DNA of 7,256 nucleotides, from the IMG/VR virus record IMGVR_UViG_3300011952_000021, one strand, 5' to 3'. The notes beneath the pieces are model-generated. The model ran no database searches. It saw nothing but the letters and a program-made list of their open reading frames with translations, and had not been told where the DNA came from. The stretch is from a virus (lineage: Duplodnaviria > Heunggongvirae > Uroviricota > Caudoviricetes). Positions within the stretch are counted from its first letter, which is position 1. Each line of letters opens with the position of its first letter. Of this stretch, positions 261 to 5,518 are shown one piece after another. Both the position numbers and the translations under genes were made by a program.

Positions 261-668
261 ATGGATACAAGAACCCTAGGCCAGCGAGTTCTGGCGCGAC
301 GAAAAGAATTACGCTTAACACAACGAGAAGCTGCGCGCCTCGCTGGAGTTGCTCACGTCACAATTTCACAATGGGAAAGAGACGAAACCCAGCCAGTCGG
401 AAAACGATTGTTTGCTTTAGCGGATGCTCTGAAGTGCTCACCTACATGGCTAATGTTTGGTGACGAAGACAAGGCACCAGTGCCTGCACAAGAACTTCAT
501 GTGGAAACAGAGCTAACTCCCAACCACAAAGAATTGATCGAATTATTCGATGCTCTTCCATCTTCCGAGCAGGAAGCCTTGCTGTCTGAAATGCGCGCAA
601 GAGTAGAAAACTTCAACAAACTCTTCGAAGAAATGCTTAAAGCGCGTAAAAATAAATCAATAAAATAA
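261..668 (+). CDS. dicA: DicA-family (XRE/cI-type HTH) prophage repressor, 135 aa
   Basis: ORF track 261..668. N-terminal HTH_XRE signature (LTQREAARLAGVAHVTISQWERDETQP). The segments KRLFALADALKCSPTWLMFGDEDK and LIELFDALPSSEQEALLSEMRARVENFNKLFEEMLKARK closely resemble E. coli DicA as I recall it, which is also 135 aa; I judge this a diverged paralog, not an identical copy. No SD precedes the ATG; a -10-like TAGAAT sits at 246-251, so the mRNA may be leaderless. Confidence 0.85.
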   Translation: MDTRTLGQRVLARRKELRLTQREAARLAGVAHVTISQWERDETQPVGKRLFALADALKCSPTWLMFGDEDKAPVPAQELHVETELTPNHKELIELFDALPSSEQEALLSEMRARVENFNKLFEEMLKARKNKSIK

Positions 669-836: not shown

Positions 837-992
837 ATGGATACTATCGATCTTGGCAACAGCGAATCTCTGGTATGTGGCGTGTTCCCCAACCAGGACG
901 GTACGTTCACCGCGATGACATATACCAAAAGCAAAACGTTTAAAACCGAAAATGGTGCCCGTCGCTGGCTGGAAAGAAACTCAGGTGAGTGA
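837..992 (+). CDS. ydfA: Small prophage protein, 51 aa, YdfA/YdaF-like (DUF-type hypothetical)
   Basis: ATG at 837 with SD GAGGT at 828-832. Product MDTIDLGNSESLVCGVFPNQDGTFTAMTYTKSKTFKTENGARRWLERNSGE is exactly 51 aa, the length of Qin YdfA, and sits first after the dicA-like gene as ydfA does. The track ORF 783..992 is the same frame with an upstream start that lacks an SD. Confidence 0.6.
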   Translation: MDTIDLGNSESLVCGVFPNQDGTFTAMTYTKSKTFKTENGARRWLERNSGE

Positions 993-993
993 T

Positions 994-1569
994 ATGGATT
1001 TCGACACAATCATGGAAAAGGCTTACGAAGAATACTTCGAAGGTCTTGCCGAAGGCGAAGAAGCTCTCAGCTTCAGTGAGTTTAAACAGGCACTCAGAAT
1101 AAGAATGTGCTCTCACAATGACGCGGAGCACAAATATGAGAAGCAAAATCAGACCGCAGAAAATTTTGTTCTGGAACCCGGAGAAACGCTTTTCAAAATT
1201 CCCGTTACGTGCCCCATTTGCGGTTTTACATCAGAAGAACTTGACGACTCCTGTAACAATCAGGAAACAACCAAGTATGTCGAAGATGATACCGAGTGCG
1301 CACGAAGAACGATTATATCCACGAGTCCAAACTCCAGGACCAATAAATCTCACTTTGAGAGGGTGATTAATCCACTCCCCCAAACCAATAAAAAAGATGC
1401 CGGAGGACAAAAAACCCAATGGAACAACGGGATATCTGTCAAAAAAAGACGTTCCATTAAAGACAAACAACGCAGCGCCAACAACTGTAAGCGCTTTATA
1501 CCAGTAATCAATTTTCATGTTCTTAAGCGGATTTATTGGTGGTTGCGACATTGCTTAATGAATCCTTAA
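994..1569 (+). CDS. Hypothetical protein with YdfB-like N-terminus (MDFDTIMEKAYEEYFEGLAEGEE...) and a CPICG motif; C-terminal extent uncertain
   Basis: ATG 994 lies 1 nt after the ydfA-like TGA (990-992), preceded by AGGTGA at 984-989, so the two genes look translationally coupled. Same frame as track ORF 952..1569. The frame is open to 1569, but the last ~110 codons are K/R/N/Q-rich low complexity and are codon-aligned antisense to a membrane-like ORF (1231..1551, -), so only one of the two may be real there. Confidence 0.45.
   Translation: MDFDTIMEKAYEEYFEGLAEGEEALSFSEFKQALRIRMCSHNDAEHKYEKQNQTAENFVLEPGETLFKIPVTCPICGFTSEELDDSCNNQETTKYVEDDTECARRTIISTSPNSRTNKSHFERVINPLPQTNKKDAGGQKTQWNNGISVKKRRSIKDKQRSANNCKRFIPVINFHVLKRIYWWLRHCLMNP
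1231..1551 (-). CDS. Possible small membrane protein (106 aa, about three predicted TM helices), possibly a truncated SieB-like superinfection-exclusion protein
   Basis: Track ORF 1231..1551 (-) has three hydrophobic stretches (ALTVVGAALFVF, GFLSSGIFFIGLG, ALGIIFDILGCFLIVTGVV). An AAGGA SD lies 11 nt upstream of the ATG. In Rac-type prophages a membrane sieB gene lies antisense between the small early genes and kilR. It could instead be a shadow ORF of the + strand ORF 994..1569, which shares its codon boundaries. Confidence 0.3.
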   Translation of the reverse strand: MSQPPINPLKNMKIDYWYKALTVVGAALFVFNGTSFFDRYPVVPLGFLSSGIFFIGLGEWINHPLKVRFIGPGVWTRGYNRSSCALGIIFDILGCFLIVTGVVKFF

Positions 1570-1590
1570 AACTGTGGTGATTTTAAGGAT
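1562..1590. other. Perfect 10-bp stem / 9-nt loop hairpin (ATCCTTAAAA-CTGTGGTGA-TTTTAAGGAT)
   Basis: Read directly. It contains the TAA stop (1567-1569) of the + ORF and the SD-like AAGGA of the minus-strand membrane ORF. No U-tract follows on + strand, so it is not a canonical intrinsic terminator. Confidence 0.35.
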
Positions 1591-1828
1591 ACCACCTCGC
1601 CTGACGTGGTTAAAAGCAGGCACACAACACGAAAGCGCACGGCGAAGTTCGTCTCACTGTACGGTGTCGTTAAATTTAATTCGACCGTGCGCTTCCGGTT
1701 GTGGCAACCCGCGAAATGGCGCGGCGGTAAGTATGGCGGGGTTATTCCTTCCCCGTTGAGGACACCGGGTTGTCAGGTTGACCATACGCTTAAGTGACAA
1801 CCCCGCTGCAACGCCCTCTGTTATCAAT

Positions 1829-1886
1829 TTTCTGGTGACGTTTAGCGGTATCAGTTTTACTCCGTGACTGCTCTGCCGCCGTTTTT
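1829..1886 (+). ncRNA. dicF: DicF-like antisense sRNA (ftsZ translation inhibitor) with 3' hairpin and U-tract
   Basis: TTTCTGGTGACGTTTAGCGGTATCAGTTTTACTCCGTGACTGCTCTGCCGCCGTTTTT matches the 53-nt E. coli DicF sequence as I recall it, with 1-2 substitutions. It ends in a GC-rich stem plus TTTTT (1882-1886) and lies inside the operon downstream of the ydfA/ydfB-like genes, as dicF does in Qin. Confidence 0.75.
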
Positions 1887-2060
1887 AAAGTGAATTTTGT
1901 GATGCGGTGAATGCGGCTGAGCGCACGCGGAACAGTTAAAACCAAAAACAGTGTTATGGGTGGATTCTCTGTATCCGACGTTAATTGTTAACTGGTTAAC
2001 GTCACCTGGAGGCACCAGGCACCGCATCAACAAAGTTCATTTGTAAAAATGGAGATAATT

Positions 2061-2282
2061 ATGATTGCACATCACTTCGGAACTGATGAAATACCACGTC
2101 AGTGTGTGACTCCTGGCGATTATGTTCTTCATGAAGGCCGGACATATATTGCCTCGGCAAACAATATTAAAAAGCGAAAACTATATATTCGTAACCTGAC
2201 CACAAAAACATGCATTACTGACCGCATGATTAAAGTCTTCCTCGGTCGTGATGGTTTACCTGTAAAGGCGGAGTCATGGTGA
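2061..2282 (+). CDS. kilR: KilR-like small protein, 73 aa (putative FtsZ/cell-division inhibitor)
   Basis: ATG 2061 with SD GGAGA at 2051-2055 (track ORF 2049..2282, same frame). The 73-aa length and the position immediately upstream of the ydaE-like, racC-like and recE-like genes reproduce the Rac order kilR-ydaE-racC-recE. Identification rests on synteny and length, not verified by alignment. Confidence 0.6.
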
Positions 2283-2903: not shown

Positions 2904-5518
2904 ATGAGCACAAAACCACTCTTCCTGTTACGGAAAGCGAAAAAATCATCCGGTGAACCTGACGTCGTCCTGTGGGCAAGTGACGATTTTGAATCGACCT
3001 GTGCCACTCTGGACTACCTGATCGTTAAGTCAGGTAAAAAACTGAGCAGCTATTTTAAAGCTGTTGCCACGAATTTTCCTGTCGTTAATGACCTGCCCGC
3101 TGAAGGTGAGATCGATTTTACCTGGAGTGAACGCTATCAACTCAGCAAAGACTCCATGACATGGGAACTAAAACCGGGAGCAGCACCAGACAACGCTCAC
3201 TATCAAGGCAATACCAACGTCAACGGCGAAGACATGACTGAGATTGAGGAGAATATGCTACTCCCAATTTCTGGCCAGGAACTGCCCATTCGTTGGCTTG
3301 CTCAACACGGCAGCGAAAAACCGGTAACGCACGTTTCACGCGACGGACTCCAGGCATTACACATTGCTCGGGCTGAAGAACTACCGGCTGTTACTGCCCT
3401 GGCTGTTTCCCACAAAACCAGCCTGCTCGACCCGCTGGAAATTCGCGAACTCCACAAACTNNNNNNNNNNGGTTCGTGACACTGACAAAGTTTTCCCTAA
3501 TCCTGGTAATTCAAACCTGGGACTGATAACTGCTTTTTTCGAAGCATACCTGAACGCTGACTACACCGATCGAGGACTGCTGACAAAAGAGTGGATGAAG
3601 GGTAATCGTGTTTCACACATCACTCGCACGGCTTCCGGTGCTAATGCTGGCGGCGGAAACCTCACCGATCGCGGCGAAAGTTTCGTACACGATCTGACGT
3701 CACTGGCGCGCGACGTAGCCACTGGCGTACTGGCCCGTTCAATGGACGTGGACATCTATAACCTTCATCCGGCACACGCTAAACGCATTGAGGAAATTAT
3801 CGCTGAAAATAAACCGCCCTTTTCTGTTTTCCGCGACAAATTCATCACCATGCCTGGCGGGCTGGATTATTCCCGCGCCATCGTGGTTGCGTCCGTAAAA
3901 GAAGCACCAATTGGGATCGAGGTCATCCCCGCGCACGTCACTGAATATCTGAACAAAGTACTGACTGAAACCGATCATGCCAACCCTGATCCGGAAATCG
4001 TGGATATTGCCTGCGGTCGCTCCTCTGCCCCGATGCCGCAGCGAGTAACAGAAGAAGGAAAACAGGATGATGAAGAAAAACCGCAACCATCTGGAACAAC
4101 GGCAGTTGAACAGGGAGAGGCTGAAACAATGGAACCGGACGCAACTGAACATCATCAGGACACGCAGCCGCTGGATGCTCAGTCACAGGTAAATTCTGTT
4201 GATGCGAAATATCAGGAACTGCGGGCAGAACTCCATGAAGCCCGGAAAAACATTCCATCAAAAAATCCTGTCGATGCCGATAAATTGCTTGCTGCATCAC
4301 GTGGTGAATTTGTTGACGGAATTAGCGACCCGAACGATCCGAAATGGGTGAAGGGGATTGAAACCCGCGATTCAGTGAACCAGAACCAGCAAGAAACGGA
4401 ACAGAACGACCAGAAAGCGGAACAAAACAGCCCAAATGCGTTACAAAACGAGCCAGAAACGAAACAACCTGAGCCAGTAGCGCAACAGGAAGCGGAAAAA
4501 ATCTGCACCGCCTACGGTCAGACCGGCGGCGGCAACTGCCCTGAATGTGGTGCGNNNNNNNNNNCGGACCGATCCGAAATGGGTAAAGGGGATCCAGTCT
4601 CGCGATTGTGTGTACCAGAACCAGCCAGAAACGGAAAAAACCAGCCCAGATATGAATCAACCTGAGCCAGTAGTGCAACAGGAACCGGAAATAGCCTGCA
4701 ATGCCTGCGGCCAGACTGGCGGGGATAACTGCCCTGACTGTGGTGCGGTGATGGGCGACGCAACATACCAGGAAACATTCGCTGAAGAGAGTCAGGTTGA
4801 AGCTAAGGAAAATGATCCGGAGGAAATGGAAGGCGCTGAACATCCGCACAATGAGAATGCTGGCAGCGATCCGCATCGCGATTGCAGTGATGAAACTGGC
4901 GAAGTCGCAGATCCCGTAATCGTAGAAGACCTAGAGACAGTTATCACATCCACCAGCAGGACGTGTGACCATCTAATGATCGACCTTGAAACCATGGGAA
5001 AAAATCCTGATGCCCCGATTATCTCAATAGGCGCAATATTTTTCGATCCACAAACCGGAGATATGGGACCGGAATTTAGCAAGACCATAGATCTGAATAC
5101 TGCTGGCGGAGTCATTGATCGTGACGTCATTAAATGGTGGCTGAAGCAATCACGTGAAGCGCAGTCTGCCATTATGACCGATGAAATCCCGTTAGATGAT
5201 GCACTGTTACAATTGCGGGAATTTATCGACGAAAACTCCGGTGAATTTTTTGTTCAGGTCTGGGGAAATGGAGCCAACTTCGACAACACGATTTTGCGCC
5301 GTTCATACGAACGGCAGGGGATCCCCTGCCCGTGGCGTTACTACAACGATCGCGATGTACGCACAATCGTTGAGCTGGGGAAAGCCATAGACTTCGATGC
5401 CAGAACGGCTATTCCATTCGAAGGTGAGCGGCATAATGCACTTGATGACGCCCGTTACCAGGCAAAATACGTTTCAGTTATCTGGCAAAAACTGATCCCG
5501 AGTCAGGCTGATTCTTAA
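2904..5518 (+). CDS. recE: RecE-like (exodeoxyribonuclease VIII family N-terminal region) protein, about 868 aa, with a C-terminal DEDDh/DnaQ-like 3'-5' exonuclease domain; reading frame broken by two 10-N runs
   Basis: Track ORFs 2904..3479, 3364..4665 and 4547..5518 are consecutive pieces in frames 0, +1, +2, each switching exactly at an N run; with the N runs removed they join in frame (..ELHK-L-VRDTDK.. and ..CPECGA-RTDPKW..). The N-terminus [29 protein letters not shown].. matches E. coli RecE as I recall it. C-terminal domain motifs: Exo I MIDLETMG (~4981), Exo [13 protein letters not shown] (~5265), Exo [16 protein letters not shown] (~5433). SD GAGG sits about 10 nt upstream of ATG 2904. 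Confidence 0.85.
3461..3470. other. Run of 10 N (assembly/scaffold spacer) inside the recE-like CDS
   Basis: Literal n x10. Flanking codons are only in frame if the true gap length is a multiple of 3, including 0. Confidence 0.95.
4336..4747 (+). repeat. Two diverged tandem in-frame copies of a 59-73 aa unit ([30 protein letters not shown]) inside the recE-like CDS, separated by the second N run
   Basis: Copy 1 at 4336-4554 (73 aa), copy 2 at 4571-4747 (59 aa). Both begin GATCCGAAATGGGT.AAGGGGAT and end CCTGA.TGTGGTGCG. Each carries a C-x2-C ... C-P-x-C-G zinc-ribbon-like Cys pattern. Confidence 0.8.
4555..4564. other. Run of 10 N (assembly/scaffold spacer) at the junction of the two tandem repeat copies
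   Basis: Literal n x10. Frame is restored if the true gap is a multiple of 3. Its placement exactly between repeat copies suggests a repeat-induced assembly break. Confidence 0.95.

Follow-up and report, generated by a model that had tools for sequence, protein, structure and literature searches.

Which strand codes between positions 1231 and 1551 of the 7,256-nucleotide stretch of viral DNA recorded in IMG/VR as IMGVR_UViG_3300011952_000021 (Caudoviricetes; the whole stretch is denoted the window)? Here an open reading frame (ORF) of 191 amino acids on the plus strand, 994–1569, runs over one of 106 amino acids on the minus strand, 1231–1551. Re-derived translations confirmed the pair, and because 1231 − 994 = 237 = 79 × 3, plus and minus codons occupy the same triplets throughout the overlap. 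An earlier inspection of the letters by themselves (the sequence-only reading) had taken one of the two ORFs to be probably a shadow of the other. The comparisons described here make it almost certain that the minus ORF is a genuine gene, and they point to a two-strand module as the probable arrangement, in which both strands would code: a minus-strand gene for a membrane protein and the plus ORF that covers it. The elements of this module are as follows.

994–1569, plus strand: ORF of 191 amino acids, with the Shine-Dalgarno-like sequence GGTGA 4 nucleotides (nt) upstream of its ATG; matches PHROG 35040 (5e-141).
1174–1230, plus strand: conserved peptide motif EPGETLFKIPVTCPICGFT (amino acids 61–79; EPG-x9-CPxCGF), with CPICG at 1210–1224.
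1231–1551, minus strand: gene for a 106-amino-acid membrane protein of an unnamed family, ATG at 1551–1549 and stop codon TGA at 1233–1231.
1563–1567, minus strand: Shine-Dalgarno-like AAGGA, 11 nt upstream of the minus ATG (AAGGA, ACGGA or AAAGA in relatives).
1586–1623, minus strand: conserved 38-nt element GTGCCTGCTTTTAACCACGTCAGGCGAGGTGGTATCCT with promoter-like hexamers, 35 nt upstream of the minus ATG.

In a collection of 5.8 billion proteins, the minus product had 60 homologues, nearly all of 100–111 amino acids and aligning end to end at 34–58% identity; they stem from Yersinia, Herminiimonas, Reinekea and many metagenomes. The alignment of this family, which is defined in the present analysis, contains 14 invariant residues grouped as DYWYKA and GLGEWINHPL. 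The corresponding profile retrieved 485 sequences at E ≤ 1e-3 from 1.84 billion cluster representatives, and the window product shows all family hallmarks: a length of 100–115 residues, three hydrophobic segments, D-Y-W-Y-K-A and G-x-G-E-W-x-N-H-P. The product is not truncated, as had been suspected, since 100–115 amino acids is full length throughout the family. Genomic scans located the gene in Actinomycetes, Desulfobulbales, Nitrospirales, Arcobacter and Beta- and Gammaproteobacteria; of 29 distant genomic loci, 23 had 1–17 stops in the antisense frame that is codon-aligned with the gene. A degraded copy with several in-frame stops and deletions was seen in Shigella flexneri SFBU0723 (L025, 6001–6348).

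Among enterobacterial relatives, differences cluster at minus third positions, and the ratio of nonsynonymous to synonymous substitution rates (dN/dS) of the minus frame is 0.12–0.19. The plus frame yielded values within the overlap of 1.3–1.7 for close pairs and 0.5–0.8 for distant pairs. Single-nucleotide polymorphisms (SNPs) in the overlap of E. coli-type copies comprise 14 synonymous and 15 nonsynonymous changes when read in the minus frame, and 7 and 22, respectively, in the plus frame. This check for purifying selection across relatives, which the sequence-only reading had proposed, thus finds protein-level selection in 1231–1551 on the minus frame only. The homologues show the reverse of the outcome that was to have spoken against a minus gene, namely a conserved plus frame together with a minus frame often interrupted by stops.

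Homology, dN/dS, SNPs and three predicted helices together bear out the proposal of a small membrane protein gene. Hydropathy segments at residues 17–37, 40–61 and 82–106 agree with an AlphaFold2 model (predicted local distance difference test score of 83) that contains helices at 17–32, 42–62 and 85–105 and a beta-hairpin at 65–79, in line with the roughly three transmembrane helices noted earlier. The charge distribution suggests an N-in, C-out topology with the K/R-rich loop after GEWINHP in the cytoplasm. The preferred reading is that of an inner-membrane protein whose beta-hairpin loop, past the invariant GLGEWINHPL, would be cytoplasmic. The minus product matched no named family among Pfam, NCBIfam, PHROGs and PADLOC models, and neither product had a match at E ≤ 1 to the PADLOC-DB 2.0 defence models. 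Comparison of the modelled fold with the PDB (best E 0.9) and BFVD (best E 0.013, template modelling score 0.34) gave no usable match.

The plus frame is open over the minus ORF because TTA, CTA and TCA, which are stop codons when read from the other strand, are absent from the latter (0 of 16 Leu and Ser codons in the window). An open codon-aligned antisense frame was also present in 23 of 290 (8%) control windows of 107 codons from neighbouring prophage genes; the bare observation of an ORF pair is therefore not remarkable. Given the minus amino-acid sequence and the codon usage of its neighbours, the probability of an open plus frame is ∼0.002–0.009. All five enteric lineages compared have zero antisense stops, and TTA, CTA and TCA account for 0/16, 0/17, 0/16, 0/15 and 0/14 of their Leu and Ser codons, while A-ending codons make up 20–31% of the other codon families; TTA and CTA constitute 15–34% of the Leu codons in neighbouring genes. 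Per-lineage P values for stop avoidance are 0.002–0.05. Third-position identity between these lineages is 0.296 compared with 0.277 expected, so that synonymous sites are saturated and the lineages can therefore be treated as independent trials.

The family splits into a prophage-associated subfamily A, characterized by the loop [F/Y]P..P[T/L], and a partner-less subfamily B. In an unbiased count of non-redundant lineages with a guanine plus cytosine (GC) content below 0.50, zero antisense stops were seen in 11 of 13 subfamily A lineages versus 1 of 26 subfamily B lineages (Fisher p = 5e-7); in a GC-matched subfamily B sample, 21.7% of Leu and Ser codons are TTA, CTA or TCA. From these counts we consider it likely that the plus frame has been kept open by selection and hence is translated. 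Stop avoidance combined with a lack of amino-acid constraint suggests that, across the overlap, the plus frame is held in openness and not in amino-acid sequence. The suspicion that one ORF is a shadow is therefore half right: no plus-frame amino-acid constraint is seen in the overlap, but the openness appears to be kept by selection. As had been noted, the plus tail is of low complexity and hydrophilic (K+R 21, D+E 12 and N+Q+S+T 34 of 112 residues; mean hydropathy −1.10). The hydropathies of sense and antisense residues correlate at −0.71, which follows automatically whatever synonymous codon is used.

Codons 1–34 of the plus ORF (994–1095) are those of ydfB, whose product in K-12 Qin is an uncharacterised protein of 42 amino acids; the two are unrelated from codon 35 onwards. 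A linker, the motif at residues 61–79, the overlap at residues 80–186 and five further codons complete the ORF, the whole of which is called by phage annotators. The motif EPGETLFKIPVTCPICGFT directly abuts the antisense of the minus stop codon. The codons for F-K-I-P-V-T-C-P-I-C-G-F vary mainly at plus third positions among E. coli, Escherichia sp., Yersinia and a metagenomic lineage of 58% identity (ATT/ATC/ATA, CCC/CCA/CCG/CCT, TGC/TGT, GGT/GGA, TTT/TTC), with the common pattern I-P-x-x-C-P-I/V-C-G-F. The ratio of nonsynonymous to synonymous polymorphism (pN/pS) of the motif in the plus frame is 0.28–0.41, with 0.35 in one group and 0.28 in a second, environmental one; in both of these independent groups, the other five frames gave higher values. 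This pattern of variation indicates that the motif is under purifying selection in the plus frame, and selection upstream of the overlap agrees with the earlier judgement that the plus product is credible over its first ∼80 codons.

The distance of PG-x9-CPxCG to the antisense of the minus stop is unchanged in Roseateles aquae and several metagenome contigs. Similarity to Escherichia sp. and related lineages begins at 1174–1175, and that to the 58% and Yersinia lineages spans ∼1209–1630; these limits define a mobile unit that consists of the motif, the membrane gene and the upstream element. Other lineages have this core joined to different N-termini, in frame every time. At L118, L119 and L167, the plus ORF begins at the leader and ribosome-binding site that precede ydfA in the window. 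Some E. coli lineages (L167, P0067, P0070) have open frames of 245–280 amino acids, in which the plus ORF reads on in frame across the 38-nt element and into ydfC. A profile search with the motif alignment (A4) for standalone homologues of the motif gave two close fragments only. Pfam found nothing in the partner ORFs of L118, L172 and L005 and a weak rubredoxin-like match (E 0.13) on the CPICG knuckle of the window product. An alternative partner head, 'PGSV...GW' (L006, L173, L198), gave no signal of plus-frame selection, its sequences being too diverged.

The upstream element GTGCCTGCTTTTAACCACGTCAGGCGAGGTGGTATCCT carries, on the minus strand, a −35 hexamer TTAACC (1613–1608), a 16-nt spacer and an extended −10 hexamer TGgTATCCT (1594–1586), and is a plausible candidate for the promoter of the minus gene. 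It is nearly invariant from E. coli to Yersinia, though the flanking genes are saturated with substitutions. The same element stands upstream of a different, soluble 66-amino-acid minus gene in phage mEp460_ev081 (L209, 2436–2636), and a diverged form lies upstream of Rac sieB; this distribution suggests a shared promoter with interchangeable cargo genes. It also occurs, without the membrane gene, in phage Evi. Two short overlapping inverted repeats are present in the element, with one apparent compensatory change against Rac; folding of the RNA gave z-scores of −1.3 to +0.6 over both strands and thus no thermodynamic support. A search for an intrinsic terminator of the minus gene yielded only a weak candidate, 180 nt downstream at 1054–1035.

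Positions 1–2041 of the window are 99.85% identical to the E. coli chromosome L001, in which the Prokaryotic Genome Annotation Pipeline (PGAP) lists, in this order, a Cro/CI gene, a helix-turn-helix repressor gene, ydfA (DUF1391), a truncated ydfB pseudogene and, past an unannotated gap of ∼960 nt, dicB, ydfD, an exonuclease gene, xis and int. This gene order and the Rfam match to DicF show that the window belongs to a Qin/Rac-type lambdoid prophage, of which it represents the immunity and early-left region. The plus strand is the sense strand of its repressor-controlled operon, and the surrounding features are the following.

261–668, plus strand: DicA-like helix-turn-helix repressor gene (Pfam HTH_3, 1.5e-14; PGAP helix-turn-helix coding sequence at the same place in L001); the region is 86% identical to the K-12 Qin dicA region.
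837–992, plus strand: ydfA (DUF1391), first gene of the early-left operon (Pfam DUF1391, 2.2e-27; PGAP ydfA); its stop codon TGA, 990–992, lies one base ahead of the start of the plus ORF.
1830–1881, plus strand: DicF small RNA, downstream in the same operon (Rfam RF00039, 64.8 bits, E 6.9e-13).
2049–2282, plus strand: kilR-like gene, the next protein-coding gene of the operon (Rac DNA identity; the L118 homologue has Pfam KilR).

An Rfam scan of the window found DicF and no other RNA. The ORF at 2049–2282 is kilR-like and not dicB, because 1876–2300 matches K-12 Rac kilS-kilR-ydaE DNA (92.5% identity). The window is thus a Qin/Rac mosaic: Qin-type (dicA-like gene, ydfA, DicF) up to 2041 and Rac-like from ∼1876 (1876–2452); the DicF match coincides with the homologue of Rac kilS. 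Homology to K-12 Qin, which amounts to 85.8% identity over 601–1094 as a whole, ends at 1094 and picks up again at 1612. We lean towards the view that a module of ∼1174–1623 was inserted in the early-left operon in place of the 3′ end of ydfB and ydfC. At least 80% of 900–1700 is carried by 793 of 5426 complete E. coli genomes. A further plus-strand ORF of 63 amino acids at 1606–1797 matches PHROG 8854 (5e-28); its DNA is homologous to the stretch between ydfC and dicF in K-12, and therefore it is probably part of the DicF precursor RNA and not a gene. Two runs of ten N lie within the exonuclease gene (3461–3470 and 4555–4564). Both flanks of the second run (4273–4554 and 4637–∼4918) map to one stretch of L001, as expected for duplicated contig ends at a scaffold gap; the ORFs at 3364–4665 and 4547–5518 are therefore assembly artefacts of a single exonuclease gene.

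At all enterobacterial loci, the membrane gene lies within ∼0.4 kilobases (kb) of a prophage repressor gene, on the strand opposite to the adjacent lytic operon. This repressor-adjacent antisense layout was seen in prophages of E. coli, Escherichia sp., Yersinia and Pantoea rodasii, and it holds for prophages that differ in immunity type (an S24 cI-like or a DicA-like repressor) and in their early genes. The module is placed at the switch between lysis and lysogeny, its two ORFs being assigned to transcription units under opposite regulation. At L172, five same-strand genes headed by an S24 repressor, with spacers of 10–42 nt, end with the membrane gene; at L175, the repressor and cII flank the gene, which shares the strand of the repressor; in Roseateles, it is antisense at the head of a primase operon. 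The equivalent slot of K-12 Rac, past the DUF1391 gene and on the opposite strand, is occupied by sieB.

The more distant family members, those of subfamily B, were found outside phage contexts. In Reinekea (L121/L122), L125 and L123 they stand in runs of small, unannotated same-strand ORFs of ∼100–150 amino acids with spacers of ∼90–120 nt, adjoined in Reinekea by a ParD-like gene. The layout resembles that of integron cassettes, but no repeated attC-like sequence was found in these arrays. In Herminiimonas aquatilis (L120, 7001–8179), a DUF5677 gene follows 88 nt downstream of the homologue in an otherwise housekeeping neighbourhood. A metagenome-assembled genome of Arcobacter sp. contains three 100% identical copies (L014, L015, L016) of a segment that includes a subfamily B homologue and measures at least 12.3 kb, reflecting either a multicopy mobile element or duplication in the assembly.

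The sequence-only reading had likened the minus product to SieB, which agrees in position only. Like the minus gene, sieB of lambda, P22 and K-12 Rac encodes a small membrane protein in the early-left region on the strand opposite to the lytic operon; Rac sieB directly follows the DUF1391 gene ydaF, just as the minus gene follows ydfA, and the DNA upstream is related. SieB differs, however, in length (162 versus 106 amino acids, SieB proteins in general having ∼160–190), in motifs and in predicted architecture, and the two have no sequence or profile similarity. Homology was rejected, as the minus product had no match to PF14163 at E ≤ 1 (Rac SieB as a positive control, 1.5e-31) and hhalign comparison of the family alignment (A1) with SieB gave a probability of 0.2%. 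Moreover, no open antisense frame runs over Rac sieB, unlike in the window module.

Lambda rexB encodes a membrane protein that is co-transcribed with the cI repressor. The L172 homologue is similar in being on the same strand downstream of the S24 repressor, in a cI-rex-like lysogenic operon; unlike RexB, the family has no Pfam match and no RexA-like partner, and the window has the gene and the repressor gene in convergent orientation. Class I holins have three transmembrane helices and ∼100 amino acids, a size and layout shared by the minus product, and one BFVD 'Holin' was among the non-significant fold matches (E 0.29). A holin was rejected because all prophage loci examined have the gene in the immunity region and not in a lysis cassette beside an endolysin gene. 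We also rejected the toxin of a type I toxin-antitoxin system, a single helix of less than ∼60 amino acids controlled by a small antisense RNA; the minus product has 106 amino acids and three helices, and its antisense partner is a long ORF.

Overlapping genes on opposite strands have been described from E. coli O157:H7, where they are reportedly short ORFs embedded in an established gene and supported by RNA sequencing and ribosome profiling. These cases (ano/ECs2385, PMC5960689; three genes in EDL933, PMC9927249) resemble the module in having protein-coding ORFs on both strands of one locus. The module differs from them as they are described: the embedded gene is old and widely conserved, the covering ORF combines a conserved head with an unconstrained tail, the evidence is evolutionary, and the pairing recurs from Enterobacteria to Betaproteobacteria. 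At the exclusion locus sieB/esc/sas of P22, a nested escape protein and an antisense RNA form a switch, so that overlapping coding and antisense transcription separate a lysogenic function from the phage's own lytic growth, as they may in the module (PMC12197685). In P22, the same strand yields Esc as an internal product in the same frame, and the RNA sas is non-coding, whereas here a coding frame on the opposite strand spans the whole gene. Any antagonism between the plus ORF product and the membrane protein is hypothetical.

Because the position of the gene is analogous to those of sieB and rexB, a role in exclusion, abortive infection or another form of lysogenic conversion suggests itself, and we tentatively regard the membrane protein as a possible exclusion-type factor of the lysogenic phase. 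In the proposed scheme, it would be made in the lysogen from its own promoter-like element and ribosome-binding site and would act as an exclusion- or abortive-infection-type or other conversion factor. The plus ORF would be made with the early operon, only after derepression; once the prophage is induced, the membrane gene would be silenced by transcription from the opposite direction together with 321 nt of complementary RNA. The functional core of the plus ORF would be the EPG-x9-CPxCGF knuckle just ahead of the overlap. The amino-acid sequence of the overlap would be set by the minus gene alone, with selection purging TTA, CTA and TCA from the minus strand. Openness might be needed for the protein, its tail properties being supplied automatically by the antisense code, or else for the transit of ribosomes. 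A more far-reaching version, which we regard as improbable, is an obligate two-protein switch: the lysogen would make the membrane effector and the induced phage an antisense-encoded partner, an Esc-like self-immunity factor that would neutralise the membrane protein already present by means of its CPxCG head and a tail of complementary hydropathy. If true, recombination could not separate effector from antidote, given their complete overlap, and it would be explained why the tail must be translated yet needs no conserved sequence of its own.

Several observations weigh against the two-strand module and the functions proposed for it. PGAP treats the start of the plus ORF as a ydfB pseudogene and annotates only 994–1095. 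In 8 of 121 E. coli-type copies, a sample ascertained via the minus protein, the plus ORF is broken and the minus gene intact, and a GGT>TGA change has the same effect at L119. Within the overlap, the plus tail lacks amino-acid constraint, and some subfamily A genes have no open antisense frame at all (4–9 stops), so that the membrane gene must be able to work without an open plus frame. Subfamily B members are found in non-phage contexts, including the arrays of small same-strand ORFs, and no homology or fold match in Pfam, NCBIfam, PHROGs, PADLOC, PDB or BFVD links the membrane protein to exclusion or defence systems. The promoter-like element matches at 4/6 plus 4/6 positions with an extended −10, was missed by a simple promoter scan and is present in PPompW-type (PPompW/Stx2a) phages without a convincing minus ORF.

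The truncated ydfB and the broken plus ORFs would be accounted for if only the minus strand codes and the plus ORF from ∼1096 is the shadow of a moron cassette that landed in ydfB, its openness being due to codon bias. A plus-frame dN/dS above 1 between close relatives, the lack of third-position constraint and the 8% of control windows with an open frame would fit as well. We nevertheless consider this explanation rather unlikely, as codon bias does not account for the specific absence of TTA, CTA and TCA beside other A-ending codons at 20–31%, nor for zero stops in 11 of 13 versus 1 of 26 lineages of comparable GC. Furthermore, the CPxCG motif, which lies outside the overlap, evolves as plus-strand coding sequence, its distance to the overlap is unchanged all the way from E. 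coli to Roseateles, and the joins to different N-termini are in frame every time. The converse, a plus strand that alone codes as far as 1569 with the minus ORF as its shadow, has practically no probability, even though gene callers mostly choose the longer plus ORF (clusters of 1798 versus 141 members; PHROG 35040; phage HannyBb). Plus homologues are confined to close relatives, the plus products at related loci are 58–65% identical while the minus products are 84–88% identical, and dN/dS, SNP spectra and the deep conservation of the minus protein all point the opposite way.

Openness without sequence constraint is also what would be seen if the plus frame merely provided ribosome cover against Rho polarity or against pairing with the minus mRNA and RNase III, with the product being irrelevant. 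Such cover would be in place upstream of DicF, kilR, the recombination genes, xis and int in the window, of cII and replication genes at L175 and of the primase gene at L005. We judge this unlikely, because it leaves the conserved CPxCG peptide unexplained. In addition, the plus strand is A-rich with only a mild excess of C (GC skew −0.09 to −0.15), the K-12 operon tolerates ∼570 nt of untranslated RNA ahead of dicB, Rac sieB does without a covering antisense ORF, and the L172 partner ORF has no same-strand genes downstream. That the minus product is a truncated or divergent SieB is very improbable: slot and orientation are those of Rac sieB, the upstream DNA is recognisably related and both are small membrane proteins, but the absence of a PF14163 match, the hhalign probability and a family that is uniformly 100–115 amino acids long with its own invariant motifs stand against it. 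The two-strand module remains the reading that we prefer.

The existence of complete antisense overlaps between bacterial coding sequences is disputed; the majority of the candidates put forward are young and have expression data as their basis. Antisense overlapping genes as such, and antisense control at exclusion loci, are known already. New here would be an ancient embedded gene of an unnamed family, a covering ORF with a constrained head and an open, unconstrained tail, and a pairing that is found in distant bacteria; our literature search found no paper on this ORF pair, and the papers on the dicBF operon treat K-12, which lacks the module. For genome annotation, a conserved membrane-protein family is masked in hundreds of E. 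coli genomes; in the one genome examined (L001), PGAP annotates neither ORF apart from the truncated ydfB pseudogene. For overlapping genes in general, the module may show how selection acts on an overlapping frame. Its evolutionary signature appears clean, in that one frame is under sequence constraint while the other is constrained to stay open and in nothing else, and the question can be tested directly with single synonymous substitutions. For phage biology, the module offers a candidate lysogeny-phase membrane factor in the sieB slot of Rac/Qin-type prophages, together with a candidate lytic-phase partner.

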